Below, one piece after another: positions 4,676 to 62,969 of a stretch of 64,000 nucleotides of DNA. Position 1 is the first letter of the stretch. Each line of letters opens with the position of its first letter. The translations under genes and the position numbers were made by a program. The notes below the pieces were generated by a model. That model ran no database searches. It was not told the origin of the DNA and was given only the letters and a program-made list of their open reading frames with translations. The DNA is from Patescibacteria group bacterium (lineage in GTDB: Bacteria; Patescibacteriota; Patescibacteriia; UBA9934; GWF2-40-263), in the NCBI GenBank assembly GCA_004297215.1, contig SCUM01000001.1, forward strand, positions 219,642-283,641, read 5' to 3'.

Positions 4676-4705
4676 AGATGGGCGTGGGGGTTTATCCCGC
4701 CGAAG

Positions 4706-5326
4706 TTAGCGGGAATAGAATTCGACGATCATGGTGGGATCGAACACCGAGCGGAGGTCTTCCCCGTCGGGCACGGCCGTGACCTTGCCCGAGAGCGTCC
4801 CGATGTCCAAGGCGAGCCACTTGGGCGGCTCGAGCTTGGCGATGCGCTCGGCAAGCCCCTGCAGGAGCCCCTTGCCTTTCTTATTCTCCTTGAACGAAAC
4901 CGTGTCGCCCACGCGCAGGCGGTACGAGGGGATGTTCACCGGCTTGCCGTTCACCAGGAAGAACCCATGGCTCGCCATCTGGCGCGCCTGGCGGCGGGTC
5001 TTGGCGAAGCCGAGGCGGTAGGCCGCGTTATCGAGGCGCAGCTCGAGCATCTGCACGAGGCGCGTGGCCGTGTTGCCTTTCTGGCGGGAGGCCTCCTCGA
5101 AATAGTTGCGGAACTGCGTCTCAAGCACCAGGTACAGGCGCTTTGCCTTTTGCTTCTCGCGCAACTGGGTGCCGTACGAGGACAGGCGCGGCCGGCGCAA
5201 GCTTTGCGCGGGGCCGTGCACGCCCGGCGGGAACGCGCGGCGCTTGACCGCGCATTTCTCGCGCCCGCACAGGGACACCCCTTCGCGGCGGCACATCTTG
5301 CAGGTGGTTTTCAGCGTCTTGCCCAT
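4706..5326 (-). CDS. rpsD: 30S ribosomal protein S4 (with N-terminal Cys4 zinc ribbon)
   Basis: 206 aa with CKMCRREG..C..EKC plus the S4 domain. Confidence 0.93.
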   Translation of the reverse strand: MGKTLKTTCKMCRREGVSLCGREKCAVKRRAFPPGVHGPAQSLRRPRLSSYGTQLREKQKAKRLYLVLETQFRNYFEEASRQKGNTATRLVQMLELRLDNAAYRLGFAKTRRQARQMASHGFFLVNGKPVNIPSYRLRVGDTVSFKENKKGKGLLQGLAERIAKLEPPKWLALDIGTLSGKVTAVPDGEDLRSVFDPTMIVEFYSR

Positions 5327-12035: not shown

Positions 12036-12067
12036 ACGTCTCGATGCCTCAGGAATCCCTGAAGCCT

Positions 12068-12796
12068 TCACGCCTGCGGCCTTCCCGCCTTTCCATGCCC
12101 GAACGAATAGTTGAACAGGTCGTGCTTGATCGGCCCGAGCGTGGCCAGGTGCAGCTCGGCCAGCATGAACTTGAGCGCGATGTTCACGCGTCCGTCGCGG
12201 TCGAGCCGGCGCACGGACACCGGCACCTTGAACGGCAGGAACCCGAACGAGCCCGCGCGCGCGCCACGGCGCGCGTAGTCGTGGTCTTCGCAGAACGTGA
12301 CGCTCTCGTCGAACCCGCCGATCGCGTCATGGAGCGACCTGCGTACGAGCAGGCAGAACCCGGGCGCATGCGGGAACGCCTTGCCGAGGGCGCGGACGTA
12401 GCGGTTATAGGCGCCGTGCATCACATGGTCGAGTGGGGCGTCGGAAAGGGGGAACACGTCGCATGTGGCGAGGTCGAGCTTGCGGTCTCGCATGCACGCG
12501 ACGGCCTGCTCGAGGAACGTCGGGTCATCAAGCTCCACGTCGGCGTCGAGGAACAGGATGAGCTCGGTGGATGCATGCGCGGCGCCGCGATTGCGTCCGG
12601 GACCTGGCATGCCGCCATCCACCACGCGCGCGCCAAACGAAACCGCGACCTCTCGCGTTCGATCGGTCGAAAACGCGTCCGCCACGATGATTTCGGCAGG
12701 CTGAAGCGTCTGGCGACGGATGGACGCGAGAAGGCGCGGCAGGTAAGTCTCTTCGTCTTTGGCGGGGATGACGATGGTCAGCACACTACCACCCAT
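12068..12796 (-). CDS. family 2 glycosyltransferase
   Basis: GT2 core ...ADA.S.D.T and a DAD motif. Start at the Met abutting the upstream TAG. The C-terminal 7 aa are encoded by a REP copy. Confidence 0.65.
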   Translation of the reverse strand: MGGSVLTIVIPAKDEETYLPRLLASIRRQTLQPAEIIVADAFSTDRTREVAVSFGARVVDGGMPGPGRNRGAAHASTELILFLDADVELDDPTFLEQAVACMRDRKLDLATCDVFPLSDAPLDHVMHGAYNRYVRALGKAFPHAPGFCLLVRRSLHDAIGGFDESVTFCEDHDYARRGARAGSFGFLPFKVPVSVRRLDRDGRVNIALKFMLAELHLATLGPIKHDLFNYSFGHGKAGRPQA

Positions 12797-12797
12797 C

Positions 12798-13277
12798 CTA
12801 GCCGATTTTGCGTCCAAGGACAAACAACGCGACCCCTGTCGCCACGGCCACGTTGAGCGACCGTTTGGCGCCAGGAAGCGGGATTTCCACGGTCGCATCG
12901 CAAGCCGCAACGACTTCTTTGGGGACGCCTTCCACCTCGCTGCCCAGGATCAGGGCGAGACCGGGAGATTGCTTCGTCCCCTTCGACAAGCTCAGGGTCC
13001 TCGCAAAGACAGATAGGTCAACTGCCCCTTCGCGATTGTCGAGCGCGACGACCGTCATCCCCTTTCCCTTCAATTCCACGATGAGCGCCAGCACGTCTTC
13101 CCGCTTTTCCCACGGCATACGGTCCTGACTTCCCAAAGCCGTCTTCGCGATCTCATTCCTTGGCGGAGTCCCGGTGTATCCGGTAAGGTACAATTTCTCC
13201 ACGCCAAAGGCATCGGCGCTCCGAAAGATGGAACCGACGTTATGGAGGCTGCGGATGTCGTGGGCGATGAGGAACAT
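12798..13277 (-). CDS. SPOUT (SpoU/TrmH-family) RNA 2'-O-methyltransferase, TrmL-like
   Basis: 159 aa with SpoU motifs (..LILGSE..GV.., E.PLPGA..SLNVA.A). Confidence 0.65.
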   Translation of the reverse strand: MFLIAHDIRSLHNVGSIFRSADAFGVEKLYLTGYTGTPPRNEIAKTALGSQDRMPWEKREDVLALIVELKGKGMTVVALDNREGAVDLSVFARTLSLSKGTKQSPGLALILGSEVEGVPKEVVAACDATVEIPLPGAKRSLNVAVATGVALFVLGRKIG

Positions 13278-13330
13278 GGGGAAAGGTTTGAAGGGTTGTA
13301 AGGGTTGTAAAGGTGTAGGATGTCTTTTTT

Positions 13331-18506: not shown

Positions 18507-18527
18507 AGGGTCTGGATGAAGAATGTG

Positions 18528-18581
18528 GGATGAAGGATGTAGGATTTCTTTGCGTATCCTACATCCTACATCCTTCATCCT
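18528..18581. promoter_or_regulatory. 19-bp perfect inverted repeat GGGATGAAGGATGTAGGAT / ATCCTACATCCTTCATCC(C) with heptamer duplications, between response-regulator stop and pilin start
   Basis: Seen directly. It overlaps the last codons of the response regulator. Confidence 0.45.
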
Positions 18582-18969
18582 ACATTCTAACCCGTTCCTT
18601 TACGAGCCGCTCCACGTGCGCGCGCGTTTCCGTCGGCGTGACATGGCCCTTGAGCAGGTATCCGTCCGTGCCGCAGGCAAGCGTCTCGCGCACATGCTCG
18701 CGGTCCCCGCGCGCCGTGAGCGCGACCACGACGATGCCGGAGCTGGTCGGGTCTTCCTTGAGCGCGCGGACGAGCGCGAACGCCTCCGGCACCGTATCGG
18801 CGTCGAGGAGCATCGCGTCCGGAGCCTTCTTCGCGACGAGCTTGCGCGCCTCCTTCGCGTCCGGCGCGAGGCGCGCGACCCACCGGGCCGCCTCGAACCG
18901 CCGCGCGTAGATGCCGGCGAACGTCGCGTCCGGATCAACGATGAGCAGCTGGCGCTTGCGGGCAGGCAC
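18580..18969 (-). CDS. stand-alone response regulator receiver (CheY-like) protein
   Basis: 129 aa with LLIVDPD, MLLDAD, VVALTARGD and the GTDGYLLKG receiver motifs. Confidence 0.7.
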   Translation of the reverse strand: MPARKRQLLIVDPDATFAGIYARRFEAARWVARLAPDAKEARKLVAKKAPDAMLLDADTVPEAFALVRALKEDPTSSGIVVVALTARGDREHVRETLACGTDGYLLKGHVTPTETRAHVERLVKERVRM

Positions 18970-18970
18970 A

Positions 18971-20083
18971 CTACTCGATGTCGCGCATCGCGAGCCCGAT
19001 CGACACGGCCATGCGCGGTCCGATCTCGTCGAGCACCGGACGCAGGTCCGCCGGGTAGGACACCCGCGCCCACGGGTCGCCGCGATAGACGTTCAGGTTG
19101 AGCGAGGCGGAGAGGAACTCGGGCACGCCCGGGAGATGCGCGCTGCCGCCGGTCACCACCACCTTTTCCACCTTCTTGAACTCCGTGAGCTCCATGCGCG
19201 CGTACAGCTGGAGCGCGTACTGGATCTCGTGGAGGATGGGTCCCATCGCAGCCTCCACCGCGGGCGGGAGCTTGCCTCCGGGCATGGCCGGCTGGTTCCC
19301 CAGGTCGGTCTTGATCTGTTCGGCCTCCGATTCGGGCACCGACATCTGCTCCATGATCTTCTTCGTGACGGACGATCCTCCCACGTTGATGGACCTGGTG
19401 AGGAACGGGATGCCTTTCTCGACCACGGTGATGTTCGTGCGCCCGAACCCGATGTCGAGGATGAGCACCGCGCTCTTGTCCTTGCCGATCAGGCTGCGGA
19501 TGAGGGCGAAGGACTCGGTATCGATCGCCTGGAGCTCGAGCTTGGCCGTGCGGAAGATCTCGATGTACTTCTGCACGAGCGTCTTGGCCGCGCCCGTGAC
19601 GAGCACGCGCACGTAGTCGGACGGCTTGCCAGCCGGAACCGTTTGTTCTTTTCCTGCGGCCTTCGTGCCTGAGGCCTTCCCCGCCTGCAGAGGATCGATG
19701 AACGTCGAATAGGTGATCATCTCCGAGATGGGAAGCGGGGTGAGCTTGGCCACCTGCGCGTCGATGAGCGGTTTCATCTCCTTCTCGTCCTTGCGCCGCG
19801 GCACCGCCACGATCGTCGAAAAGATCGAGGACAGCGGGAGCGCCGCCATGGCCTTGTTCGTCTTCACCCCGGCGCGCTTGCACAGTTCGGCAAGCGTCTC
19901 CCCGGCGCCCTTGACGTCCTCGAACGGCGAAACCACGGCCTCTCCCGGCTTGCGCTCGGAATAGCCGTAGGTCAGCAGCGTGGCGCGGCCCTTCTCGTTG
20001 GAAAGCTCCACCACCTTGACCCCCCCGGCGCCGACGTCCACGCCGAGGAAACTTTGCTTTTTCGGAGCGCCGAACAGGGCCAT
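18971..20083 (-). CDS. pilM: type IV pilus assembly protein PilM (actin-like ATPase)
   Basis: SFLGVDVGAGGVKVVELS N-terminus and the actin fold ~350 aa. Confidence 0.75.
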   Translation of the reverse strand: MALFGAPKKQSFLGVDVGAGGVKVVELSNEKGRATLLTYGYSERKPGEAVVSPFEDVKGAGETLAELCKRAGVKTNKAMAALPLSSIFSTIVAVPRRKDEKEMKPLIDAQVAKLTPLPISEMITYSTFIDPLQAGKASGTKAAGKEQTVPAGKPSDYVRVLVTGAAKTLVQKYIEIFRTAKLELQAIDTESFALIRSLIGKDKSAVLILDIGFGRTNITVVEKGIPFLTRSINVGGSSVTKKIMEQMSVPESEAEQIKTDLGNQPAMPGGKLPPAVEAAMGPILHEIQYALQLYARMELTEFKKVEKVVVTGGSAHLPGVPEFLSASLNLNVYRGDPWARVSYPADLRPVLDEIGPRMAVSIGLAMRDIE

Positions 20084-20509: not shown

Positions 20510-20523
20510 ACGGATAGGCAGGA

Positions 20524-20588
20524 AGGCCTCAGACGTGAAGGCGTTAAGGGTAATCCCTGAGGCCTTGTCCGCCTAAGGCCTTCACGCC
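20524..20588. repeat. full-length copy of dispersed palindromic REP/MITE-like element (L-arm units ..GTGAAGGCGTTAAGG / centre / R-arm CCTGAGGCCTTGTCCGCCTAAGGCCTTCACGCC)
   Basis: Shares the core GGCCTTGTCCGCCTGAGGCC with at least 12 other loci. It supplies the recJ stop codon. Confidence 0.8.
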
Positions 20589-22396
20589 TTCAAGTCAACG
20601 ATCCTCAACTGCAATTCCCGGTTCCCCTTCCACTCGTTCACGCCTAATTCGAAGGCGACGTCCAATGCCTGCCCCGGTTTCAGTCGCTTCACCCATTCCC
20701 CGAACCGGAACCCGATGAACTTGGCTATTCTCCCACCCTTGCCGCGCGCCGACAACCGGAGATGCTTCCCGTCCGCGCCGACCGTGTCAAAGGCGACGAC
20801 GGTCGCGCGCGAGGCGAACAATGGACGCGGGTTCTTCTCGCCGAACGGTTCGAGTTTCTGCACGGCCTCGAGCAACGCCCAATCCACGTCCTCGAGGTCG
20901 AGGTCGGCGTCCACGCGCAGGATCGGACGCAAGTCATCCGGCTTGATGTGCGCGTCGGCGTGCTTATGGAGCGATTCGACGAGGAACGCGAACCGTTCTT
21001 CCCCGCTCACCGAAAACCCGCACGCCTGCGGATGCCCGCCGAACCGATCGAGGTGTTCCTTGCACGCGTGAAGCGCCGCGGTCACGTCGAACCCGCCGAA
21101 GCTACGGCCGGAGCCGACATAACGCTCGCCATCTTTTCCGACCGCATACACCGGACGACAAAAATCGTTCACCAACTTGCCCGCGACGAGCCCGACGAGT
21201 CCCGGCGACCAGCCGGCGCTTGAGACGATGACGCACTTCGTGTCACCGGGATCGCCGACGAGACGCTTCGCCTCCTGATACATCGCCTCGGACGCCTTCT
21301 GACGATCTGCGTTCACTTCGTTGAGACGCATGGCAAGCTCGGCCGCTCGCGTCGGGTCTTCTTCGAGCAACAACTCGACCGCGCCACGTGCGTGCTCCAT
21401 GCGTCCAGCTGCATTCAGCCGCGGTCCGATCTGAAAACCTATGGTCACGGTGTCGAGCTCCCCGCCCTTGTTACCAGCCGCCTCGAGGAGTTTTTGGATG
21501 CCCACGCGCCGCGTCTTGTTGAGCACTTTGAGCCCATACGTCTCGAGCACGCGGTTCTCCCCCATGAGCGGCATCACGTCCGTGACGGTCGCGATGGCGA
21601 CGAGGTCGAGCAGCCATTTCTCATACCCTTCCGCGAAGCTCGCACCACGTTTAGATGCCTCATGGATAAGCGCGCTCGCCAACTTAAAGGCGACTCCTGT
21701 CCCGCACAGCGTCTTGTTCGGATACGTCTCCCCTGGCACTTGCGGGTGCAGCAGGATGGCCGCGTCCGGGAGCGCGTCGGGCACGGCATGGTGATCGCAC
21801 ACGATGGTGTCCACGCCCAGCTCGCGGCCCCGGTCGATCGCGTCCTTGTTGGAAATGCCGCAGTCCACGGTGATGACCAGCTTTGTCCCTTCGGCCGCAA
21901 GCTTTTCCATGGTCGCGACGGACAGGCCGTAGCCTTCCTTCTCGCGGTGAGGGATATAGGAGGAGAGCTGAAAGGCGGTAGAGGCCCGCAGGCCCGCAGG
22001 GTTTTCCCTGAAAGCCTTGTCCGCCTGGGGGCCTTGTCCGCCTAACGATCGACAGATGTCGCACAGCGTGGACATGAGCACGGTCGTGCCGCACACGCCG
22101 TCCGCGTCGTAGTCGCCGTGGACCGTGATGCGCTCGCCGGCCTCAAGCGCCGCGAAGACGCGCTCAACGGCCGCTTGCATGTTGCGAAACATCGAGGGCG
22201 AGTGCGCATCACGACTCCAATCCGGCCCCAGGAACACGTCCATTTCGGCTTGGGTCCTCACTCCCCTGTTCCACAGCAACCGTAATGCCACCGGATGCAC
22301 GTCCGGGAATGCCGCCCGAGCCTCGTCGGGCACGGCCGGATCGGTTATCCACACGCGCTCTTTCATGGCACGAGGATAGCACAAACGGACCCGCAC
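20582..22396 (-). CDS. recJ: single-stranded-DNA-specific exonuclease RecJ
   Basis: DHH motifs (HGDYDADG) and DHHA1. Contains a ~26-codon in-frame REP insertion (..GGQGPQADKAFRENPAGLRAS..). Confidence 0.88.
   Translation of the reverse strand: MRVRLCYPRAMKERVWITDPAVPDEARAAFPDVHPVALRLLWNRGVRTQAEMDVFLGPDWSRDAHSPSMFRNMQAAVERVFAALEAGERITVHGDYDADGVCGTTVLMSTLCDICRSLGGQGPQADKAFRENPAGLRASTAFQLSSYIPHREKEGYGLSVATMEKLAAEGTKLVITVDCGISNKDAIDRGRELGVDTIVCDHHAVPDALPDAAILLHPQVPGETYPNKTLCGTGVAFKLASALIHEASKRGASFAEGYEKWLLDLVAIATVTDVMPLMGENRVLETYGLKVLNKTRRVGIQKLLEAAGNKGGELDTVTIGFQIGPRLNAAGRMEHARGAVELLLEEDPTRAAELAMRLNEVNADRQKASEAMYQEAKRLVGDPGDTKCVIVSSAGWSPGLVGLVAGKLVNDFCRPVYAVGKDGERYVGSGRSFGGFDVTAALHACKEHLDRFGGHPQACGFSVSGEERFAFLVESLHKHADAHIKPDDLRPILRVDADLDLEDVDWALLEAVQKLEPFGEKNPRPLFASRATVVAFDTVGADGKHLRLSARGKGGRIAKFIGFRFGEWVKRLKPGQALDVAFELGVNEWKGNRELQLRIVDLKA
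21966..22043. repeat. REP-like element inserted in-frame inside recJ CDS
   Basis: GCCTTGTCCGCCTGGGGGCCTTGTCCGCCT plus an AGGCCCGCAGGCCCGCAGG arm. It interrupts the conserved DHH region. Confidence 0.75.
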
Positions 22397-26687: not shown

Positions 26688-26929
26688 AGCTGCGGCTGCT
26701 CCGTGTCCAAGCCGATCGCGGCCTGATACTCCGCGAACCGTCCGCGAAGCGCTTCGGCCATGCCCACGGTCGACGAGTCGTCATGCATTTCGCCGAATCC
26801 GCGATGCCGTTCGATCACTTCGTCCACGAGGTCGACGTATTGCTCCTTCGTGTTGATGCCCTCGGCGCGGCCGAGCTCGACGATCTCCAGGAAGATTTCG
26901 GACGGGTCGACGTTGAGGAATTCGATCAT
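26684..26929 (-). CDS. small hypothetical protein (81 aa), 4-nt overlap with downstream MBL gene
   Basis: ORF; operon position only. Confidence 0.4.
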   Translation of the reverse strand: MIEFLNVDPSEIFLEIVELGRAEGINTKEQYVDLVDEVIERHRGFGEMHDDSSTVGMAEALRGRFAEYQAAIGLDTEQPQL

Positions 26930-26935
26930 ATGAGG

Positions 26936-27012
26936 ATAGGCGTTAAGGCTTCAGGCGTGAAGGCGTTAAGGGATTTCCTGAGGCCTTATCGCCTGAGGCC
27001 TTCATGCCTGAG
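26936..27012. repeat. full-length REP-like element (inverted arrays of ~15-bp units around GGATTTCC centre)
   Basis: GCGTTAAGGCTTCAGGCGTGAAGGCGTTAAGGGATTTCCTGAGGCCTTATCGCCTGAGGCCTTCATGCC. It encodes the last 7 aa and stop of the VKOR gene. Confidence 0.8.
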
Positions 27013-27432
27013 AAGAATGACGCAAAGGATGAGGATCGTCAGAATGGAGACTTGCGACGTCACGCACAGCAGGCACCAGCTCTTGAGCACGAACGCCTCG
27101 ATGCCCGAAAGGTAAAGCGCGAAGGCCGTCCCGCCGGCGGCGGCGGCGAGCAGGATGCGCGTGAGGTTCTTGTCCTGCATGTCGCGGCGCTTGAGCGCCG
27201 CGGCGGCGAGCAGGAACAGGTATCCGAGTACGCCGATGCCTGCCACGGGGATGCCGAACAGCACCGAATACGGCCCCTTGTTGACCACGTCGCAATTGAA
27301 CGTGTCGCCGATGGTGCAGAACGACCCCGACGAGAACCCGCGATTATGAAGGAAGGCGTAGGTCGATATCGAAAGGCCGATGGCGGAGAGGAGCATCACG
27401 AGGTGCAGGACGTGCTTGTCTTTCCCTTCCAT
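26986..27432 (-). CDS. vitamin K epoxide reductase (VKOR) family membrane protein
   Basis: Loop Cys pair (CTIGDTFNCD) and a CLLC active site in the TM helix. Confidence 0.75.
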   Translation of the reverse strand: MEGKDKHVLHLVMLLSAIGLSISTYAFLHNRGFSSGSFCTIGDTFNCDVVNKGPYSVLFGIPVAGIGVLGYLFLLAAAALKRRDMQDKNLTRILLAAAAGGTAFALYLSGIEAFVLKSWCLLCVTSQVSILTILILCVILLRHEGLRR

Positions 27433-32365: not shown

Positions 32366-33986
32366 ATGCCGCGCTGCCGCCGAACTCCTCGAGAAGGAGG
32401 TCCACGGCCTCGTCCGGATCCGTCGCTCGCGCATACGTGCCGTGCAGGTGCAGGCGCGCGCCGTACACGCGCTCGAGCACGGGATCGAGGATGAGGCGGT
32501 TGCGGACGGTATTGAGCGTGTCGGCGTGGAGCGAATAGGCGAAGCTGATCTCGATGCGGTCGCCATCCACCCTGGAGATCTCTCCGGTCCGCAGCACGAC
32601 GGGCAGCGACGCGTTTGCGGCCTTCACCAGCTGGAACACGTCCGGCCATTTGGCCTTGACCTGGTCGATGGAGAGGACGGGGACGGTGCCGAGAGCAGTG
32701 GGGGGAGAAGGCGGTAAGGCATCAGGCGTTGAAGGCCTCAGGACGGGCGAATCGGAGACCGAAATAGTCTGAACTTCTACGTTCCCTTCGGCCTTGTCGC
32801 CTACGGCCTTCACGCCTCCCTCTAGCCTCACCGAACCAACCCTCGTCCTCCTAAAATCCGCGCTTCCCTGCGGGCCTTGTCCGCCTGAGGCCTTGTCCGC
32901 CTCGCCGACGCACGACTCCACGATCGCGATCTCTAACGGGAGCGATGGAATGGATTCGCCTTTGGACTGACGCCGCGCCTTTTCAAAACGATCGATGAGC
33001 ACGGCGATCGCACGCGGATTCGTCTGCCCAAGCAATGCGGTAAGTCGTCCTGCGCTGTCATGGTCGAGGCGCGAGGGGAGCGCTTGCGCGTCGCCAAGGC
33101 TCGCGTGGAGCAGGGCGCGCAAGGCGTCCACCACGTCGGCGGCGAAATGCGGGAGATCGACCCCCTGCTCCGCCACCTTCCCGACGAGGGCCACGGCCGA
33201 GGCCGCGTCGCGCTTCACCACGTGTTCGACGAGTTCGGCGGCCGCCAGCGCGTTGGTCGCGGGCAAGACGAGCGAGGCCTCTTCCATCCCCACCTTCTTG
33301 CCGCCGATGGCGAACAGCTGGCCAAGAAGCGACTCGGCATCGCGCAATCCTCCTTCGGCATGACGCGCCACGGCCGCGAGCACGGCTTCCTCGACCTCCA
33401 CCCCTTCCTTCTTGGCGATGCCACGGAGCGTCTCGACGAGTTCCGCGACGGGGATGCGTCGGAAATCGAACCGTTCGCAGCGGCTGATCACCGTCGCGGG
33501 GACCTTGTGGATCTCGGTGGTGGCCAGGATGAACACGGCGTGCGCGGGCGGCTCCTCGAGCGTCTTTAAGAGCGCGTTGAACGAACCGGCGGAGAGCATG
33601 TGCACCTCGTCGATCACGTACACGCGGCGCTTGAGGCGGTTGGGCGCGAAACGCACGGCCTCGATCACCGTCTCGCGGATGTTGTCGACGCCCGTGTGCG
33701 TGGCCGCGTCGATCTCGAGCACGTCCATGGCCGAACCGGCGGCGACGGACTGGCAGGACTCGCACGCGTTACACGGCTCGCCCCCCTTCGACGCGAGACA
33801 ATTCACGGCCTTGGCCAGGATGCGGGCGATGGTGGTCTTCCCCACCCCGCGCGGACCCGTGAACAGATACGCATGCGCGACCTTGCCCGAAACAACCTCG
33901 TTTCTGAGCGTGGTCTTCACGTGGTCCTGGCCGACCACTTCGTCGAAGCAGGTCGGACGGTAGGTTCGATACAAGGCTTCGGACAT
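32364..33986 (-). CDS. dnaX: DNA polymerase III subunit gamma/tau
   Basis: GPRGVGKTT Walker A, a Cys4 Zn module and sensor motifs. Carries 3 in-frame REP-derived segments in the linker. Confidence 0.9.
   Translation of the reverse strand: MSEALYRTYRPTCFDEVVGQDHVKTTLRNEVVSGKVAHAYLFTGPRGVGKTTIARILAKAVNCLASKGGEPCNACESCQSVAAGSAMDVLEIDAATHTGVDNIRETVIEAVRFAPNRLKRRVYVIDEVHMLSAGSFNALLKTLEEPPAHAVFILATTEIHKVPATVISRCERFDFRRIPVAELVETLRGIAKKEGVEVEEAVLAAVARHAEGGLRDAESLLGQLFAIGGKKVGMEEASLVLPATNALAAAELVEHVVKRDAASAVALVGKVAEQGVDLPHFAADVVDALRALLHASLGDAQALPSRLDHDSAGRLTALLGQTNPRAIAVLIDRFEKARRQSKGESIPSLPLEIAIVESCVGEADKASGGQGPQGSADFRRTRVGSVRLEGGVKAVGDKAEGNVEVQTISVSDSPVLRPSTPDALPPSPPTALGTVPVLSIDQVKAKWPDVFQLVKAANASLPVVLRTGEISRVDGDRIEISFAYSLHADTLNTVRNRLILDPVLERVYGARLHLHGTYARATDPDEAVDLLLEEFGGSAA
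32708..32902. repeat. cluster of three REP-like arm copies inside dnaX CDS (32708-32742, 32789-32816, 32868-32902), all in-frame
   Basis: AGGCGTTGAAGGCCTCAGG; GGCCTTGTCGCCTACGGCCTTCACGCC; GGGCCTTGTCCGCCTGAGGCCTTGTCCGCC. Confidence 0.75.
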
Positions 33987-37178: not shown

Positions 37179-37709
37179 TTAGACGGCGTTGCCGCGCTCA
37201 CGCTTCTCCGCTTCCGCGAGCAAGAGGAGCTTGTCGGTCTTGATCTTGGCTTCCTGCTCCAAGTAGAACCTGTTCGCCCGGTCGGAGAGGAGCTTCAGCC
37301 AGTCGCGGATGGCGTCGAACACCTTCTTCACGTTCACCTTGGTCTGCATGAGCAGCTCCCGCACCGAACGCGCGGTCTCTTCGCCCTGCTTCTTGAAATG
37401 CGCGCGCTCCTTGGGAGAAAGCTGCTTGTAGATTTCTTCAAGCCCTTCGGAAAGGACCGCTTCGACCTCCGCCGTCATCCGGTCCTTGGGGGCCTGGATG
37501 ACCCGTTGCACCATCTGCACGGGGGTCGGTGCCGCGACAGGTTCGGTCGCAGCCTGCTCTGTCGTTGGCTCCTCAAGCTCTTCAAACTCCTCTTTCCCTT
37601 CCGGCGCAGCTTCAACCCGCCTGCCCGCCGTAGCTTCAGCGGAGGCGGGTTCAACTCGAATCTCCCCGCCGACCGGGGCAAGACCTTTCTTTTCGGGCTC
37701 CAAGGCCAT
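37179..37709 (-). CDS. hypothetical protein (176 aa; acidic N-half, helical C-half)
   Basis: C-terminal portion of ORF 37179..38105, from the internal Met that follows the cysS stop and a REP copy. Confidence 0.45.
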   Translation of the reverse strand: MALEPEKKGLAPVGGEIRVEPASAEATAGRRVEAAPEGKEEFEELEEPTTEQAATEPVAAPTPVQMVQRVIQAPKDRMTAEVEAVLSEGLEEIYKQLSPKERAHFKKQGEETARSVRELLMQTKVNVKKVFDAIRDWLKLLSDRANRFYLEQEAKIKTDKLLLLAEAEKRERGNAV

Positions 37710-37731: not shown

Positions 37732-37767
37732 AAGGCGGACAAGGCCTCAGGCGTTGAAGGCCTTAGG
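37732..37767. repeat. REP-like L-arm copy (AAGGCGGACAAGGCCTCAGGCGTTGAAGGCCTTAGG); contains cysS stop codon
   Basis: Family core in reverse orientation. Confidence 0.75.
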
Positions 37768-41311: not shown

Positions 41312-41791
41312 TCACAGCAATCCGCGGAGTTTCTTGATCACGCGATGCGTGGCCATCTTGAGCGACGTCGCGGGCCGGCCGAGCAATTCGGCCATGTCCG
41401 CGTATCCATACCCCTCAAGGTACTTGAGCGTAACAAGGCGTCGTTCCTCGGGTTCCAGCGCCGAAAAGGCCCTGGCCACCAGCCGCTGGTCGTCGGTCCG
41501 CTGCTCCAGGCCGCGACCGTCCTGTCCCACGAGCAGGTCGCAGACGTCATCGAGGTCCACATGCATGCGCCGGTCGCGGTACCAGTTGGCGAGGTGGTTA
41601 TGCGCGATGCGGTAGATCCAGGCCGAGCGGGACACGGCCTCGTCGTAGCGGTCGAACGCCGCGAGCGCCTTCAGGAAGATCTCGCTCGTCAGGTCCTCGG
41701 CGGTCGGCTCGTCCGGGACGCGCAAACGGACGTATCGGTAGATACGATCGATGTTCGCGCAATAGAAGCGGTCAAATGCCCTGCGATCCAT
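41312..41791 (-). CDS. ECF-type RNA polymerase sigma factor
   Basis: Sigma70 region 2 (..YRIAHNHLANWYR) and region 4 (LKYLEGYGYADMAELLG). Confidence 0.8.
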   Translation of the reverse strand: MDRRAFDRFYCANIDRIYRYVRLRVPDEPTAEDLTSEIFLKALAAFDRYDEAVSRSAWIYRIAHNHLANWYRDRRMHVDLDDVCDLLVGQDGRGLEQRTDDQRLVARAFSALEPEERRLVTLKYLEGYGYADMAELLGRPATSLKMATHRVIKKLRGLL

Positions 41792-41796
41792 GGATG

Positions 41797-41882
41797 AGGC
41801 GATAAGGCCTCAGGCAAGAAGGCCACAGATTGACGAATCCTTCAAATCCCTGAAGCCTTGTCCGCCTGAGGCCTTCACGCCT
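41797..41882. repeat. full-length REP-like element between sigma factor start and upstream gene stop
   Basis: GGCGATAAGGCCTCAGGCAAGAAGG..centre..CCTGAAGCCTTGTCCGCCTGAGGCCTTCACGCC. Confidence 0.8.
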
Positions 41883-43750: not shown

Positions 43751-43925
43751 ACGGGACGCGCTCGAGTGGCGCGGTACCGGTACGGATGCGGGAAAAGGTT
43801 CAGTAAACCCGCATCCATGCCGGAGCCGCGCCACTCAAGTCCTGGGCTGACCCTCCTTCGCTCCTGATCCACCTTCGTCCTGCTGGACTTCGGTGGACGG
43901 GTGGAGCTTCGGAAGGGCTGACAAG

Positions 43926-47031: not shown

Positions 47032-47445
47032 GTGACCGCTTTCGCCATCCTCTTCACCATGGCCGCGATCGGCATTGCCGAGACGAGCTACCTCATCCGC
47101 GCCCGCAAGGCGGCCGAACGGCCGGTGTGCGTGCTCGTGAACGGGTGTTCCAAGGTGCTTGAGAGCCGGTACAATTCCCTCTTCGGTGTGCACAACGACC
47201 TGCTGGGCCTCGCGTTCTACCTCGCGATGAGCGCCCTTACCGCGCTGCTGGTGATAGGCGCCGGTCCGGTGCCGTGGTGGGAACTGGGCGCCAAGCTCCT
47301 GGTGGGCGGCGGCCTGGTCATGTCTGCGGCGCTCACCTTCATCCAATGGCGCGTCCTCAAGGCCTGGTGCTTCTGGTGCCTCATGTCAGCCGGCACGGTG
47401 CTCGTCATGGCCCTTGTCCTCTTGCCTGCGGCCTTGTCCGCCTGA
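47032..47445 (+). CDS. VKOR-family membrane protein (second copy)
   Basis: Loop Cys pair VNGC and a CFWC active site. The last 7 aa plus stop come from a REP copy. Confidence 0.7.
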   Translation: MTAFAILFTMAAIGIAETSYLIRARKAAERPVCVLVNGCSKVLESRYNSLFGVHNDLLGLAFYLAMSALTALLVIGAGPVPWWELGAKLLVGGGLVMSAALTFIQWRVLKAWCFWCLMSAGTVLVMALVLLPAALSA

Positions 47446-47458
47446 GGCCTTCAATGCC
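47426..47458. repeat. REP-like R-arm copy (CTGCGGCCTTGTCCGCCTGAGGCCTTCAATGCC)
   Basis: Family core. It provides the VKOR stop codon. Confidence 0.75.
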
Positions 47459-47849
47459 TATCCCTATGTCAAAACCTTCCGCCTACCACATCATGCGCGT
47501 CGCAATGGGGATCACCTTCGCCTGGATCGGCATCCTCATCTTCAAAGAGCCGGAATCTTGGGGCGGGTTCATCCAGCCTTGGGCCGCGAACCTCCTCCCC
47601 GTCCCGCTCGAACTCGCCATGATCGGCACGGCCGTGCTCGACCTCGCTATCGGCTTGCTCCTGCTCGTGGACGCGTTCGTCTGGATCGCCGCGACCGTGG
47701 CCGTTGCGCATCTCGCCATCGTCCTTACCGTGTCCGGCATCGATTCCGTCACCGTGCGCGACATCGGGCTTCTCGGCGCCGCCATCATGCTGTTCTGGGA
47801 AGACGCGCCCGAGACGCTCAAGGCGAAATTCCGCCGATTCCAGCACTAG
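47454..47849 (+). CDS. DoxX-family membrane protein
   Basis: 131 aa with multiple TMs. Start at the internal Met immediately after the REP copy. Confidence 0.5.
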   Translation: MPIPMSKPSAYHIMRVAMGITFAWIGILIFKEPESWGGFIQPWAANLLPVPLELAMIGTAVLDLAIGLLLLVDAFVWIAATVAVAHLAIVLTVSGIDSVTVRDIGLLGAAIMLFWEDAPETLKAKFRRFQH

Positions 47850-49032: not shown

Positions 49033-51591
49033 TCATTTCAGCAACCGCTTGAGGTAATGGCCGGTGGCGCTCCTCGCGTTGCGCGCGATGTCCTCGGGCG
49101 TGCCCGTGGCCACGACCTCCCCGCCCTTGTCGCCGCCCTCGGGGCCGAGGTCGATGATCCAGTCCGCGGTCTTGATCACGTCGAGGTTGTGCTCGATGAC
49201 GACCACGGTGTTCCCCTTCTTGACCAGCGTATGGAGGACCTCCAGCAGCTTCCGCACGTCCGCGAAGTGCAGTCCTGTCGTCGGCTCGTCGAGCAAGTAC
49301 AGCGTGCGGGTGGTCGAGCGCTTGCACAATTCGCTCGACAGCTTCACGCGCTGCGCTTCCCCGCCCGACAAGGTCGTCGCGCTTTGGCCGATCTTGAGGT
49401 AGCCGAGGCCGACTTCGACCAGGGTGTCGAACTTGTCCGCGATGGGCGAGATGTCCTTGAAGAACTCCGCGCCTTCCTCGACCGTCATCTCGAGGACATC
49501 CCAGATGTTCTTCTCCTTGAATTGCACCTCGAGCGTCTCGCGGTCGAACCGCTTGCCGCGGCACACCTCGCACGCCACGTGCACCGTGGGGAGGAAATGC
49601 ATCTCGATCGCGATCGTGCCGTGGCCCTCGCAGTTCTCGCACCGGCCGCCCGGCGTGTTGAAGCTGAAGCGCCCCGGCTTGTACCCGCGGAAGCGCGCCT
49701 CCTCGGTGGCCGCGTACAGGTCGCGGATGGGGCCCCAGGCTCCGGTGTAGGTGGCCGGGTTGCTGCGCGGCGTGCGGCCAATCGGCCCCTGGTCGATGAG
49801 GATCGCCTTGTCGATGTATTCGATGCCGAGTACGGCCTTGTGCTTGCCGGGCGTATGCGCCGTGCCGTAGAGGCGCCGCGCGATCTCCTTGTACATCGTC
49901 TCGTACGCGAGCGTGGATTTGCCCGAGCCGGATACCCCCGTGATGCACACGAAGCGACGCAACGGCAGGTCCACGTCCACGTTCTTCAAGTTGTTCTCTG
50001 AGGCCCCGCGTATCTTGATGACGTCCTTGGCCGGGCTGCGGCGCTCCTCGGGGACCGGCACCATCTCGTCGCCGCGCAGATAGGCGGCCGTGAGCGACTT
50101 CTTGTCCTCGAAGATCTTGGGCGTGGGCCCGGCGGCCACCACTTCCCCGCCGTGCACGCCCGCTCCCGGCCCGATCTCGATCATGTAGTCGCTGGCGCGG
50201 ATCGTGTCCTCGTCATGTTCGACGACAAGCACGGTGTTGCCCGCGTCGCGCAGTTGCAGCAGCGTCTCGATGAGGCGGTCGTTGTCGCGCTGGTGAAGTC
50301 CGATCGTGGGCTCGTCGAGCACGTACAAGGCGCCCACGAGGCGCGAACCGACCTGGCTCGCGAGACGGATGCGCTGCGCCTCGCCGCCCGAGAGCGTTCC
50401 GGCCATGCGGTTCAGCGTAAGGTAATGCAGCCCCACGTCGAGCATGAAGGTGAGGCGCGAAAGCACCTCCTTCATGGCCGCGCCCGAGATCTCCTTCTCG
50501 CGCTCCGACAGCAGAAGCGTCGACAGGTACGAATGCGCTTGGTCGATCGAGAGCTTCGTGAGGTCGACAATCGACATCCCTGCGGCCTTCCTGCCTGGGG
50601 CCTTGTCCGCCTTGCCCCCCGGCAGCCAGACGTGCAGCGCCTCCTTTCTCAGTCGGTCGCCCGTGCACAACCCGCACAGCTCCTCGCTGAACAGCTCGGC
50701 CGTGCCCAGGCCGTGGCACTCGGGGCAGGCGCCGTAGGGCGAGTTGAACGAGAACAGGCGCGGCTCGATTTCGGGGAACGAGAACCCGTCGTCCGGGCAG
50801 GAGAACTTGGCGGAAAGCAATTGTTCGCGCCCGTCCGGGAAGATCGCCGTCACCACGTCCTCGCCGCGCTCCACGGCCTGTACCAGCGCGTCAGCCAGGC
50901 GTTGGCGCGCGGCCTTCTCGTCCTTGGCGAACAGCGAGAGCGCGATCGTGTCCACCACCACTTCGATCGTGTGCTGCTGGTAGCGCGACAGCTTGATCTG
51001 CTTGCTCAAGTCGTATTCCTTGCCGTCGATGCGCACCTTGGCGAACCCGGAGTTGTAGAGGTCGTACAGCAGCTGGTAGTACTCCCCCTTGCGCCCGCGG
51101 ACCATCGGGGCCAGAATCTTAATCGATCCCTTCCCCCCTTCGGTCCCTTCGGCCACTCCGGCCCCTTTCAGCACCACGTCCACCATCTCTTCATTGGTCA
51201 GCTTCCGGATCTCCTTCTTGCAGGTGACGCAATGCGGCACGCCGATGCGCGCGTACAGCACGCGCAGGTAGTCGTAGATTTCCGTGATCGTGGCCACGGT
51301 CGATCGCGGGTTGCTGGAGTGCGCCTTCTGGTCGATGGAAATGGCCGGCGACAGCCCTTCGATCTCGTCCACGTCCGGCTTTTCCATCTGCCCCAGGAAC
51401 TGCCGGGCGTACGCGGACAGGGACTCGACGTACCGGCGCTGCCCCTCGGCGAAGATGGTGTCGAACGCGAGCGAAGACTTCCCCGAGCCCGAAAGCCCCG
51501 TGATGGTCACGAGCTTGTTGCGCGGGATGTCGAGCGAGATGTTCTTGAGGTTATGCTCGCGCGCGCCCTTGATGCGGATGGAATCGTTCAT
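49033..51591 (-). CDS. uvrA: excinuclease ABC subunit A
   Basis: Two ABC modules (GLSGSGKSS / GVSGSGKST) and zinc fingers. Contains an in-frame REP segment (..[14 protein letters not shown]..). Confidence 0.92.
50578..50614. repeat. REP-like R-arm copy inserted in-frame in uvrA
   Basis: CTGCGGCCTTCCTGCCTGGGGCCTTGTCCGCCTT. Confidence 0.75.
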
Positions 51592-51597
51592 ACGGAT

Positions 51598-51668
51598 AGG
51601 CGGTAAGGCTTCAGGCGTGAAGGCCTTAGGATTTCCTGAGGCCTTGTCCGCCTGAGGCCTTCTTGCCT
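51598..51668. repeat. full-length REP-like element in uvrA-uvrB junction; encodes the last ~12 aa of UvrB
   Basis: AGGCGGTAAGGCTTCAGGCGTGAAGGCCTTAGGATTTCCTGAGGCCTTGTCCGCCTGAGGCCTTCTTGCC. Confidence 0.8.
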
Positions 51669-53692
51669 TTCAGTTCTCTCATCAGATACACGATTTCGTC
51701 GCGCAGGATGGCGGCGGTCTCGAAGTCGAGCTCCTTGGCCGCGACCTTCATTTGTTTCTCTTTCTCCTTGATGACGGCCTCGATCTCATGCGGCTCGGCT
51801 ACCATCTCGATGTCGAGGATCTTCTCGACCGTCGCATCCGGATCGGCGCCGAGCATGGCGCGGATGTCCTTGATCTTCTTTTGAATCGTCTTGGGGGTGA
51901 TGCCGTGCTCCGCGTTGTGCGCGAGCTGGATCTTGCGGCGGCGGTCGGTCTCGCGGATGGCGCTCTTGAGCGAGCCGGTCATCTGGTCGGCGTAGAGGAT
52001 CACCTTGCCGTCCACGTTGCGCGCCGCGCGGCCGATCGTTTGGATGAGCGACGTCTCGGAGCGCAGGAACCCTTCCTTGTCCGCGTCGAGGATGGCGACG
52101 AGCGTGACTTCCGGCAGGTCGAGCCCTTCGCGCAGCAGGTTCACGCCCACCAGCACGTCGTAGGTGCCCTTGCGGAAATCCGTAAGGACCGTGATGCGGT
52201 CGAGCGTGCTCACGTCGGAGTGGAGGTATTGCACCTTGATGTCCTTCTCCTTCAGGAACTCCGTGAGGTCCTCGGCCATCTTCTTGGTGAGCGTGGTGAC
52301 CAGCGTGCGCTCGTTCTTGGCCGCCCGCGCGACGATCTCGCCTATCAGGTCTTCGACCTGCCCCTTTCCGCCCTTTCCGTCTTTTCCACCCTTTCCGGAA
52401 ACCGGCCGCACTTCCACGGCCGGGTCAACCAGCCCGGTCGGACGGATGATCTGTTCGACCGTCTGCGCCGACACCTTGTGCTCGAACAGGCCCGGCGTGG
52501 CCGAGACGAACACGGCCTGGCCGATCTTCTTTTCGAATTCCTGCCATTTGAGCGGGCGGTTGTCGCGCGCGCTCGGGAGGCGGAACCCGTGGTCGATGAG
52601 CGTGTTCTTGCGCGCCTGGTCGCCGTTATACATCCCGCCCACTTGCGGGACCGTGACATGCGACTCGTCCACGAATAGCAGGAAATCTTCCGGGAAGTAA
52701 TCGAGCAGGGTGTACGGCGGCTCCCCGGCCTTGCGTCCGTCGAAATGGCGCGAATAGTTCTCGATGCCGTTGCAGTACCCCACGTTCTGGATCATCTCGA
52801 TGTCATAGCGCGTGCGGCGCTTGAGGCGTTCGGCCTCAAGCGGCTTCCCTTCGGCCTCCAGTTCCTTGAGCCGTTCGTCGAGCTCGCGGCGCATGTCCGT
52901 AAGCGCGCGTTCCTTGGTCCGTTCCGGGACCACGTAGTGCTTGGCCGGGAATAGCCATTCGTCCTGGCGCGACGCCTTGTGCGAACGCGTCACCGGGTCG
53001 AGCTCGTCGATGCGCGAAGCCGTGTCGCCCTCGAAGGAGATGCGGTAGATGATCTCCTCGTTCATGGGCATCACCTCCATCACGTCGCCGCGCACGCGGT
53101 AGCTGCCGCGCTTCAAGTCCGCCGTGGTGCGCTCGAACTGCATGTCCACGAGCCGGCTCATCGTCTCTTCGCGATTCGATCCCTGCCCTGAGCCTGTCGA
53201 AGGGTCGCCGACCTTGAGATGCAGCACCTCCTTCTTGTACTCGGTGGGCGAGCCGAGGCCGTAGATGCAGGAGACGGACGCCACGATGATCGTGTCTCGT
53301 CGGGAAAGGATGGCCGACGTTGCCGCGTGGCGCAGGCGGTCGATCTCGTCGTTGATCATCGCCTCCTTTTCGATGTACGTGTCGGTGCGCGGCAGATACG
53401 CCTCCGGCTGGTAGTAGTCGTAGTACGACACGAAATACTCCACCGCGTTCTCCGGGAAGAACTCCCGGAACTCGTTGCACAGCTGCGCCGCCAGCGTCTT
53501 GTTATGCGCGAGCACGAGCGCCGGCCGCTGCGTCTGTTGGATGACGTTGGCCATCGTGAACGTCTTTCCCGAGCCGGTGACGCCAAGCAGCGTCTGGAAG
53601 CGGTCCTTGGACTTCAAGCCTGCGACCAACTGTTCGATGGCTTTCGGCTGGTCGCCAGCAGGTATATACGGAGCCTTCAGTTTGAATTTCAT
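51626..53692 (-). CDS. uvrB: excinuclease ABC subunit B
   Basis: Helicase motifs ([12 protein letters not shown]), a beta-hairpin and a UVR domain. Contains an in-frame GK-rich tandem-repeat insertion. Confidence 0.92.
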
Positions 53693-55397: not shown

Positions 55398-57671
55398 TTA
55401 TAATTTCGCTTTCCGAATTCGCAACGAGTTTAGCACCACCGAGACCGATGAGAAAGCCATGGCGGCGGAGGCGATGATGGGGTTGAGCAGTCCGAGGGCC
55501 GCGAGCGGAATGGCCGCCACGTTGTAGAAGAACGCCCAGAACAGGTTCTGCCGGATGCCGGCGTAGGTGCGCCGCGACAGGCGGATGGCGTCAACGACCT
55601 TTTCCGGTCCGCCTCCGACCAGGACGATCTGTCCGGCCTCGATCGCCACGTCCGTGCCGCTCCCCACCGCGATGCCGAGGTCAGCCTGGGTGAGCGCGGG
55701 CGCGTCGTTGATCCCGTCGCCCACGAACGCCACCTTCTTGCCCGCGGCCTGCGCCTCCTTCACGATCTCGAGCTTGCGCGCCGGGAGCACTTCCGCCTCG
55801 ATGCGGTCGATCCCGAGCTCCCTCCCGACCGCTTCGGCCGTGGCGCGATGGTCGCCGGTGATCATGACGACCTCGACGCCCATGGTCCGCAACTCCTTCA
55901 CGGCTTCCGCTGCCGTCGCTTTCGCCTTGTCCGCGACCGAGATCGCGGCAACGGCCTTCTTGTCGCGCGCGAGCACCATCACGGTCTGCGCCTTCGCCTG
56001 CATCGCGACGACGGCCTCGCGCACGGCGGACACGTCCACGCCCTCTTCTTCCATCAGCCGGAGATTGCCGAGCAGGACCGGTCCCCCGTCGACGGAACCC
56101 GACACGCCGCGTCCGGCCACGGCCGAGAACCCGGACACCTTGGCCGGCGCGACGCCCTTCTCCTTCGCGTACGCGACGATCGCCTTGGCAAGCGGATGCT
56201 CGGAGTTCGCCTCCAAACCCGCCGCGATCGCAAGAACCTCAGGCTCCTCAAGCTCCTTCGTCACCTCGATACCCGTCACCACCGGCCTCCCTTCCGTGAG
56301 CGTCCCGGTCTTGTCGAACATCACGACATGGAACGCCTTGCTGCGCTCGAGCGCCTCCCCGCTCTTGATGAGGATACCCATGCCCGCGCCGCGACCCGTC
56401 CCGACCATGATGGCGGTCGGCGTCGCGAGCCCGAGCGCGCACGGGCAGGCGATGATGAGCACGGCGACGGCCGGCACGAACGAGGCCGTGACGTCGCCCG
56501 TCGCGACGAACCAGGCGACGAAGGTGACGGCGGCCGCGCCGATGACGACCGGCACGAACACGCCGGAGATGCGGTCCACCAGCTTCTGGATCGGCGCCTT
56601 CTTCATCTGCGCGTCAGCCACGAGCCGCACGATCTGCGCGAGCACGGTGTCCCCCGCGGCCTTCTTCACCTCGACGGTCAAGGCTCCCTGCTGGTTCACG
56701 GTCGCGCCGAACACGAGGTCGCCGGCCTTCTTCGACACGGGCAGCGATTCGCCCGTAAGCATGGACTCGTCGAGCGACGAGGCGCCCTCGAGGATGACCC
56801 CGTCCACCGGCACTTTCTCGCCAGGCTTCACGAGCACGACGTCGCCCACTCGCAATCCGTCGACTGCGACTTCTTCCGTTTCCATCCCTGAGGCCTTGTC
56901 CGCCTGAGGCCTTCCCGCCTTAAACCGATGCGCCGTCTTCGCCCCAAGCTCCACCAGCTTCGCGATCGCCGCGCTCGCGCGCCCCTTGCTCTTGGCCTCG
57001 AAGTAGCGGCCGAGCAGGATGAAGGCGGTGATGATCGCCGCGACCTCGAAATAGAGGTGACCGTCGACGAACAGCTGCCACCAGCTGAATAGGAGCGCCG
57101 TAAGCGTTCCCATGGAAATGAGCGCATCCATGCCGAACGAGAGCCGGATCGCCTGCTTTACGGCCACGCGGTGGAACTCCATGCCCGGCCCAAGCACCAC
57201 GATCGTCGCGAGGATCGCCTGCACCCACACCGACGGGCTGATGCCCACGACGTCGCCCGGGATCTCGAGCCCCGACATGACGAGCACGAGCGGGATCGCG
57301 GCGAGCCCGAGTGCGAGCGCCGCCTTTCGTCCGGCCTTCCTCATGTCCGCGCCGTGCGCCATATGCCCGCCCGCCGAAGCCTCGGCGGAGGCGGGGTCTT
57401 CCCCGCTCATCACGGTGCCGTCCGGCATGACATGGCTGCCCGCCGACGCCTTGGCAGAGGCGGAACCGGCGACCGAATACCCTTGGTCCGTGACGGCCTT
57501 ATGCAGCGTCGTCTCGTCCGTTTTCTCGGGATCGTATTCGACCGCCGCCTTCTCAAGCGCGTAATTGACGCTCGCCGAAGATACGCCGGGCGTCTTCGCC
57601 AGGCTGCTCTCGATCTTCACCGCGCAGCTCGCGCAATGCATCCCCCTGATGCCGAAAGAGGTCTTTTCCAT
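55398..57671 (-). CDS. copA: copper-translocating P1B-type ATPase with N-terminal HMA domain
   Basis: GMHCASC, CPC, DKTGTLT and GDGINDAP motifs. Contains an in-frame REP segment ([12 protein letters not shown]). Confidence 0.92.
56887..56922. repeat. REP-like R-arm copy inserted in-frame in copA
   Basis: CCTGAGGCCTTGTCCGCCTGAGGCCTTCCCGCCTT. Confidence 0.75.
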
Positions 57672-62307: not shown

Positions 62308-62817
62308 TTATTTCCCTTTCACCCGTTCCACCCCGTTGAGCGCCGAGATGGTGGCCGCGACCTCTTCCGGCACCTTCGCCTTCCAGTCGCCCCCTGCTTT
62401 CATCATCGCGCGTACGTCCGTCGCGCTGATGCCCGGCACCTCCTTGATGTCCTTCACCTCCTTGCCGAGCGCGACGAATGGCGCCTTGGTGGCCGGGTTG
62501 CCGGTCCACACCTGGTGCACCTCGCCTGCCTTTTCCAACACGGCCTTGGCCCACGCCTCATCAGAAGCCATGTCCGGGACCATGACGAACTCCACGTCGA
62601 AGTTTGGGATGATGTCCTCGCCCTGCAGCGCGCGCTGGATCATGTCGCGGCGCTCCTCGGCCGTGAACGGGTTTTCGTTCGTGCCGCTCTTGTCGGAGGA
62701 ACCGATCGCCACTACCAGCTTGCCGCATAGCTTGGCCATTCCCTTCACGACCAGCATGTGGCCGTTGTGGAACGGCTGGAAACGGCCTGGGAACAGGCAG
62801 GTGAATTTGGTAGGCAT
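62308..62817 (-). CDS. nadM: nicotinamide-nucleotide adenylyltransferase (archaeal-type, cytidylyltransferase fold)
   Basis: GRFQPFHNGH HxGH motif. 169 aa. Confidence 0.8.
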   Translation of the reverse strand: MPTKFTCLFPGRFQPFHNGHMLVVKGMAKLCGKLVVAIGSSDKSGTNENPFTAEERRDMIQRALQGEDIIPNFDVEFVMVPDMASDEAWAKAVLEKAGEVHQVWTGNPATKAPFVALGKEVKDIKEVPGISATDVRAMMKAGGDWKAKVPEEVAATISALNGVERVKGK

Positions 62818-62826
62818 ATGATGAGA

Positions 62827-62931
62827 GGCGATAAGGCCGCAGGCGATAAGGCCGCAGGCGATAAGGCCGCAGGCGATAAGGCCGCAGGCGATAAGGCCGC
62901 AGGCGATAAGGCCGCAGGCGATAAGGCCTAA
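62827..62931. repeat. 7 contiguous 15-bp tandem units GGCGATAAGGCCGCA (last unit variant) abutting nadM start codon
   Basis: Counted directly: 6 perfect units plus 1 variant. The unit equals the REP L-arm subunit. Confidence 0.9.
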
Positions 62932-62969
62932 GCGCTGAAGCCTTGTCCGCCTGAGGCCTAAGGCCTGAC
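62932..62969. repeat. REP-like R-arm copy (GCGCTGAAGCCTTGTCCGCCTGAGGCCTAAGGCC); supplies stop codon of DUF362 gene
   Basis: Family core. Confidence 0.8.

Follow-up and report, generated by a model that had tools for sequence, protein, structure and literature searches.

A full copy of a short palindromic repeat lies at the uvrB/uvrA junction of a Patescibacteria (Uhrbacteria-like) genome of 842 kb, and the same repeat family occupies 14 loci in the window, the whole 64-kb stretch of DNA that was analyzed. All 14 loci overlap coding sequence; eight hold the stop codon of a gene and six are wholly intragenic. We consider it likely (a probability of roughly 80%) that these are lineage-specific, short, non-autonomous palindromic repeats that were inserted as blocks and survive at former overlap junctions between genes and in permissive gene segments. 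The original prediction had described them as REP elements inserted at gene 3′ ends, a placement that holds for the eight loci with a stop codon and fails for the other six, which lie in frame inside genes.

The segment 51598-51668 is exactly one full element, composed of a left arm (51598-51630, AGGCGGTAAGGCTTCAGGCGTGAAGGCCTTAGG), the loop ATTT (51631-34), and a right arm (51635-51668, CCTGAGGCCTTGTCCGCCTGAGGCCTTCTTGCCT). The family is built from a unit of 15-16 nt that comprises AAGGCCTCAGGCG and a spacer of 2-4 nt and has the palindromic core GCCTNAGGC. Two units as direct repeats make an arm of ~33-34 nt; two inverted arms with a 4-19-nt loop between them, followed by a short ATCC tail, make a full element of ~75 nt. 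Repeat finding, together with a regex scan and an nhmmer profile of 17 arms, gave 25 arm matches at the 14 loci, which total 847 nt, or about one locus per 4.6 kb. Allowing at most one mismatch, AAGGCCTNAGG has 41 matches in the window versus 2.6 ± 1.6 expected, all 41 of them within these loci, and the core occurs 12 times versus 1.15 expected. Units of the main family are never single; they are always grouped by two or more, spaced 15-16 nt apart. Half of the loci (7/14) are inverted doublets folding into hairpins, and six of the seven single arms share one orientation on the plus strand. The copies differ among themselves, and their flanks are unique and syntenic. The loci are as follows.

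12043-12094: GT2/PduL-like junction, with a short second arm; stop TGA at 12068-70, next ATG at 12035.
19653-19686, minus strand: single arm in frame inside pilM, encoding QAGKASGTKAAG.
20516-20589: full hairpin at the recJ/rnhA junction; RecJ stop TGA at 20582-84, rnhA ATG at 20509.
22004-22043, minus strand: two-unit arm, degenerate, within the recJ reading frame, encoding LGGQGPQADKAFRE.
26938-27009: full hairpin at the junction of a VKOR gene and an 81-aa gene; VKOR stop TAA at 26986-88, next ATG at 26929.
32708-32817, minus strand: complete hairpin, loop of 40 nt, through which the DnaX linker frame stays open.
32868-32902, minus strand: single arm, the second copy in the DnaX linker and again in frame, encoding ADKASGGQGPQ.
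37733-37767, minus strand: single arm directly 3′ of cysS; CysS stop TAA at 37763-65 in CCTAAGG; a TGnTACAAT box and then the next ATG (37709) follow downstream.
41797-41882: full hairpin at the junction of a 185-aa gene and a sigma-70 gene; stop TGA at 41875-77, sigma ATG at 41791.
47425-47459, plus strand: single arm over the 3′ end of the second VKOR gene; stop TGA at 47443-45, next ATG at 47466.
50579-50612, minus strand: single arm in frame inside uvrA.
51598-51668: full hairpin at the uvrB/uvrA junction, holding the UvrB tail and stop TAA (51626-51628, minus strand); uvrA ATG at 51591, 6 nt past the element arm.
56887-56920, minus strand: single arm in frame inside a copper P-type ATPase gene (CopA).
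62826-62960: DUF362/NMNAT junction, with seven tandem 15-mers as the promoter-distal arm; DUF362 stop TAG at 62958-60, NMNAT ATG at 62817.

At the last of these loci, one arm (62826-62930) has grown to seven identical tandem 15-mers (AGGCGATAAGGCCGC). A reading of this array as CRISPR-like or TIGR was rejected, as its units are identical and no spacers are present.

All seven gene ends that had been quoted as lying in elements (UvrB, RecJ, CysS, two VKORs, GT2, and DUF362) do so, with gene identities confirmed by Pfam and C-termini by translation; the 185-aa protein, ending in ..REA at 41875 with an 8-nt overlap, is an eighth. UvrB (51626-53692, minus strand) has its last 43 nt within the element. 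Overlaps of 27, 24, and 21 nt are seen for GT2 (C-terminus ..HGKAGRPQA, element-encoded tail GKAGRPQA), the first VKOR (26986-27432, minus strand; C-terminus ..RHEGLRR, tail RHEGLRR element-encoded), and the second VKOR (47032-47445, plus strand; C-terminus ..LPAALSA, PAALSA element-encoded), respectively. The stop of the first VKOR is at 26986-26988, rather than at 27001 as initially reported. RecJ (..LKA) overlaps its element by 8 nt and CysS by 5 nt, and the 3-nt overlap of DUF362 is the stop codon TAG itself.

The window UvrB, NrdD, and RecJ have 100% identity to proteins encoded on an 842,311-bp contig of a Patescibacteria MAG, and the nearest named relatives belong to Candidatus Uhrbacteria. 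The best relative for comparison, an ENA scaffold (L012), is collinear with the window over 41.3-64 kb at 82-92% amino-acid identity. Two further loci, L018 (RecJ 78% identical) and L019 (67%), cover recJ to pilM, and L019 also covers the VKOR gene; the closest contigs found with NrdD as synteny anchor (L015-L017) were not syntenic. Elements are absent at nine orthologous sites in L012, L018, and L019, including five of the six loci that face the 22 kb of L012. In the relatives that have no element there, the uvrB/uvrA, recJ/rnhA, DUF362/NMNAT, and VKOR/next-gene junctions are 4-nt ATGA overlaps, and at these former overlaps the window has an element of ~38-150 nt and a new stop codon. None of these four empty sites is matched by a target-site duplication in the window.

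The junctions differ in what the element did to the upstream protein. At uvrB/uvrA, L012 reads AAGAAG-ACCGTACCGGAAAAGAAAAAGCAG-GTATGA and the window reads AAGAAG, a 72-nt element, and GTATGA, such that 24 nt encoding TVPEKKKQ were replaced, not merely interrupted. The UvrB tail of L012 is ..KKTVPEKKKQV, and because a KTVPEKKK-type tail is common to many more distant UvrB proteins, the window tail is the derived state. At recJ/rnhA, L018 has TTGAAGG-TATGA, and the window carries a clean ~77-nt insertion between those bases relative to the GTATGA overlap of L018 and L019; the RecJ end changes in one residue, from ..LKV to ..LKA. The second VKOR junction reads CTCGT-CCTATGA in L012 and is ~38 nt longer in the window, where the protein is extended by five residues, with the tail PAALSA. 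At DUF362/NMNAT, where L012 has CCATGA, the window is ~150 nt longer and the C-terminus ..FVRP is unchanged, so that here the element donates the stop codon only.

For the remaining ends, the comparison draws on other material. The more distant GT2 homologues end in FGH plus 4-8 unrelated residues, and GKAGRPQA would therefore be a replacement of the GT2 tail and not an extension. The first VKOR looks like a tail replacement as well, L019, a distant relative, having a 1-nt spacer and a different tail at this place; judged against these more distant homologues, both proteins appear to fit tail replacement. The Pfam C-terminal domain of CysS reaches nearly to the protein end, so at most its last codon and the stop are involved. 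The proposal that insertion remodeled the termini is upheld in substance by the empty orthologous sites, the replaced UvrB tail, the extended VKOR, and the V-to-A change in RecJ, and fails for DUF362, whose ..FVRP end is identical. The donation of C-terminal residues is seen as new tails in four or five genes and was overstated for DUF362, RecJ, and CysS.

The six intragenic loci lie in frame in UvrA, CopA, RecJ, PilM, and DnaX, and reading frames are intact across every copy. UvrA is 11 residues longer than its L012 counterpart at the arm; the loop with this insertion has variable length and is short in the solved T. maritima and B. stearothermophilus UvrA. CopA is 10 residues longer than in L012 at its arm, an insertion absent from A. 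fulgidus CopA 3J08, which has a short turn there. RecJ has seven residues more than L018 at its internal arm. For PilM the insertion counts as eight residues, within a stretch where L018 and L019 fall short of the window protein by 8-14.

The reading frames of the arms differ with their place in the element. The first arm met by the ribosome, in its GGAC-spacer form, is open in all three frames and gives a peptide rich in Gly, Ala, Lys, Ser, Arg, Pro, and Gln. In the second arm, two of the three frames contain TGA, and there are spacer variants with TGA or TAA; a gene that enters a junction copy therefore picks up a small number of residues and ends at a new stop. None of the five single arms within genes has a stop in any frame, and 12 of the 13 junction arms have a stop in at least one.

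As RNA, the uvrB/uvrA element has a folding energy of -46.2 kcal/mol (z = -7.8). The gene-strand RNA of the five full copies (uvrB, recJ, VKOR, 185-aa, and DnaX) ranges from -37 to -56.5 kcal/mol, with z between -6 and -8 for four of them and z = -3.3 for the DnaX copy. Two atypical copies are less distinct from shuffles: the GT2 element with its short arm, at -24.0 kcal/mol (z = -2.8), and the DUF362 element with its expanded arm, at -62.7 kcal/mol (z = -2.5). No element was called as an intrinsic terminator (a G+C-rich hairpin plus a U-tract) on the gene strand, and genuine T-tract hairpin terminators are present elsewhere in the window; on the gene strand, the elements are not terminator-like. 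An Rfam scan of the window returned two tRNAs only. A promoter or Shine-Dalgarno (SD) sequence in the right arm was also considered and rejected, there being no usable spacing and SD motifs being generally lacking in the genome.

The elements resemble REP, BIME, and REPIN sequences in being high-copy palindromic repeats that occur as inverted doublets and form hairpins in operon transcripts (PMC3733652), although each arm here consists of 15-16-nt units in direct repeat and is not a single imperfect palindrome. A GTAG or CGTC tetranucleotide head sorts most REPs (PMC3733652); neither GTAG/CTAC nor CGTC/GACG is found at either arm end in any of the 17 aligned arms. In contrast to REP/REPIN elements, no locus is extragenic (0/14), and neither a Y1 transposase/RAYT nor another mobilizing gene is present among the 20 window ORFs scanned with Pfam. 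With no head of either type and coding sequence overlapped at all 14 loci, the REP label is not supported.

Among the features of MITEs, the full elements are inverted end to end and single-arm copies have no terminal inverted repeats, and presence/absence differences between related genomes are found; with no target duplication at the four junction sites compared, the elements fall outside that class. In-frame fusions with host genes have been reported for ERIC, BOX, and other MITEs, and ERIC, Correia/NEMIS, and BOX-type MITEs, like our elements, can carry open frames and produce such fusions on insertion (PMC10969869). Unlike the elements here, ERIC, Correia, and BOX elements have defined terminal inverted repeats and target duplications, and they are usually intergenic. 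The target duplication of Correia elements is TA.

By analogy, the closest counterparts would be the Rickettsia palindromic elements (RPEs) and the Coxiella QMITEs. In-frame palindromic elements are classic for Rickettsia (Ogata et al. 2000, summarized in the review PMC10969869). RPEs are likewise short palindromic repeats of a small genome that sit in frame in unrelated housekeeping genes, as is seen here for UvrA, CopA, RecJ, PilM, and DnaX; they add a hydrophilic peptide at tolerated places, have no obvious transposase, and also occur between genes. The likeness is one of description, the host phylum being unrelated. RPEs measure about 100-150 bp, in contrast to the 34-nt arms and 75-nt hairpins of this family, which also differs in having a 15-16-nt sub-repeat able to expand in tandem and in having more than half of its loci on stop/start junctions, where they supply stop codons. 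In Coxiella burnetii, QMITE1 and QMITE2 overlap functional gene 3′ ends by 1-50 bp, and the last 33 residues of enhC are QMITE-supplied, with the stop codon immediately downstream (PMC5896051). QMITEs share the overlap with 3′ gene ends and the stable stems, but they are larger and have terminal inverted repeats and direct repeats, whereas the present elements have a periodic internal structure and no target duplication at the four empty sites. No description of MITE- or REP-like elements in Patescibacteria was found in the literature searched, and this is apparently a new family of a known element kind, undescribed in Patescibacteria.

A mechanism may be sketched on this basis. The copies were added in blocks of 30-150 nt and are left in the window only at operon-internal junctions that were 4-nt stop/start overlaps or in permissive loops and linkers within genes. 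Selection would filter the insertions such that the copies remaining keep both neighboring genes intact, and the reading frames of the element could explain which positions pass. The spread would be selfish, or at least not needed by the host. Short homology might, rather tentatively, guide insertion: at six sites the junction sequence of the relative is already element-like (AAGAAG-ACC, TGAAGG-, AGACCA, AAGGTTTCGG, TCGGACAAATCC, and GTCCT). Where a stable hairpin sits flush against a start codon, translation of the downstream gene probably depends on ribosomes of the upstream gene opening the stem. Several observations fit insertion and filtering less well. No mobilizing gene was found among the window ORFs scanned, and the four junction empty sites have no target duplication. 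The replacement of 24 nt at uvrB requires two events or a recombinational mechanism. Moreover, all eight copies at gene junctions are closely followed by the start codon of a gene read in the same direction, and no copy is found in the divergent or convergent spacers of the window; such placement could be targeting or functional selection and not passive filtering.

If selection for a function applied, the junction copies might be cis-acting modules, serving structure-gated coupling in place of coupling by stop/start overlap, or acting as an RNase/processing site or an mRNA stabilizer. Their right end is constant (GCCT-ATCC, 0-5 nt, ATG), in six of eight cases no more than about 10 nt separate the right arm from the next ATG, the hairpins are very stable, and start regions in this genome have almost no SD motifs; a third hairpin type at 18508-18593 and an unrelated periodic hairpin family at like positions in a relative (L025) point the same way. 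Against this, the same operons lack the element in L012, L018, and L019, no such role applies to the six intragenic loci, and placement of all eight junction copies between co-directional genes is not significant (about 0.1 by a rough estimate, with ~45 co-directional versus 14 other junctions). We regard selected modules as unlikely. A broader idea, which we rate as doubtful and offer as speculation, is that the family may be one case of clade-wide periodic palindromic junction elements in Uhrbacteria-like CPR that would home to stop/start overlaps, perhaps by a microhomology-based or translation/transcription-coupled route, and rewire translational coupling in genomes without Shine-Dalgarno sites, with unrelated families (e.g., GTAAAARCGTAAA in L025) converging on this architecture and position.

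Alternatively, these could be true REP/REPIN elements mobilized by a RAYT (Y1 transposase) whose gene lies in another part of the genome. The inverted doublet architecture is similar, the lack of target duplications is as expected of IS200/IS605-type insertion, and the shared orientation of six of seven single arms agrees with it; this strand bias would arise just as well if minus-strand genes accept only arms with open frames, however, and with the head motif absent, coding sequence overlapped at every locus, arms built as direct repeats, and no Y1 transposase among the window ORFs scanned, we find this origin improbable. Reading the 13-nt unit as a DNA-uptake-type (USS/DUS) or protein-binding signal, not an inserted element, is very hard to sustain. 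The density of about 0.64 units per kb is similar to USS/DUS densities, inverted pairs and units in coding frames occur, and the type IV pilus gene pilM is in the window, but the units are found only in blocks of two or more, one locus has seven identical tandem units, and the differences from relatives are block insertions of 30-150 nt and not point-mutational gains. Least credible of all is an artefact, either convergence of low-complexity Lys/Ala/Gly-rich coding sequence or metagenome mis-assembly. The source is a metagenome-assembled genome and the encoded peptides are of low complexity; nevertheless, the DNA sequence itself is conserved, whichever of the three frames or two strands is read and also where it is non-coding, and the differing copies, unique syntenic flanks, and intact reading frames across all copies are at odds with such an origin. 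Block insertion of lineage-specific repeats accordingly remains our preferred reading.

The family has a narrow distribution. The arm profile gave no match in L012-L020, CPR loci with relatives of the window among them, and L012 contains no dispersed repeat family at all. Only at the 185-aa/sigma-70 junction does L012 have a counterpart, a diverged one, in the orthologous place; from this one shared copy, it follows that the family predates the split and expanded in the window lineage. When exact two-unit patterns were run against 185,579 species genomes, all matches were unrelated, either single or in tandem. Among 241 million metagenome records, the 27-mer had no match and the degenerate pattern had four, all unrelated, and the two-unit pattern had no match in viral contigs. 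These negatives imply that the source genome and any element-bearing relatives are not in those collections. Several unrelated MAGs (Massilia, a deltaproteobacterium, and others) contain 15-16-nt tandem arrays of nearly the same unit, e.g., AAGGCCTCAGGCGAAC, at about 5400-5546 in L002, 1-430 in L003, 2757-3033 in L004, and about 5900-5980 in L024. The likeness is striking, though probably a consequence of the search pattern.

Patescibacteria genomes are among the smallest and most streamlined, and selfish-looking repeats still make up ~1.3% of this window. The proteins edited by these repeats serve repair, replication, the pilus, and metal transport; this lineage, like Rickettsia, therefore undergoes protein change driven by repeats. 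In the annotation of such genomes, a C-terminal tail, a short insertion, or a stop codon can derive from an element and can differ between close relatives. The junctions are also natural experiments on the exchange of a 4-nt stop/start overlap for a hairpin of about -46 kcal/mol.

Other repeats were observed in and around the window. A second palindromic family (CCCGCCTCCGCCGAGGCTTCGGCGGGCGGG) occurs in frame in the N-terminal linker of the copper ATPase (57366-57395), where it is absent from L012, with weaker copies at 57434-57467 and 37619-37652; a copy related to this family is in frame in the gene after cysS (PASAEATAGR). The hairpin at 18508-18593, between a response-regulator gene and the next gene, is different again, with 8-nt sub-repeats (ATGTAGG/ATGAAGG); it contains the response-regulator stop (C-terminus ..RVRM), and L018 has a plain 15-nt spacer there. 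At the mraZ/rsmH junction (43761-43839), an inverted repeat with 32-nt arms, 84% complementary, and a 15-nt loop is unrelated to the main family. In L025, a relative with 42% GC whose UvrB is 72% identical, there is a separate and unrelated family of periodic palindromes of the form (GTAAAARCGTAAA)n-loop-(TTTACGNTTTTAC)n. Its copies at 4688-4785, 12065-12155, and 13267-13315 lie between genes just upstream of the next ATG, and one copy contains the uvrB stop and is followed by a stranded uvrA 5′ fragment.

Some 20 window start codons have almost no Shine-Dalgarno motifs upstream, and in several genes a TATACT or TACAAT box precedes the ATG by 10-20 nt. Boxes this close to the ATG suggest very short or absent leaders. 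Within UvrB, a window-specific eight-residue insertion, PSTGSGQG (CCTTCGACAGGCTCAGGGCAGGGA, 53180-53203), has DNA that resembles the diverged element copy of L012. Odd repetitive tails, e.g., KGLKGQKGAKGLKR and ..IASAKTASQ, are found in the Uhrbacteria-like UvrB homologues P0016, P0053, P0100, P0021, and P0005, and these tails may also be repeat-derived.
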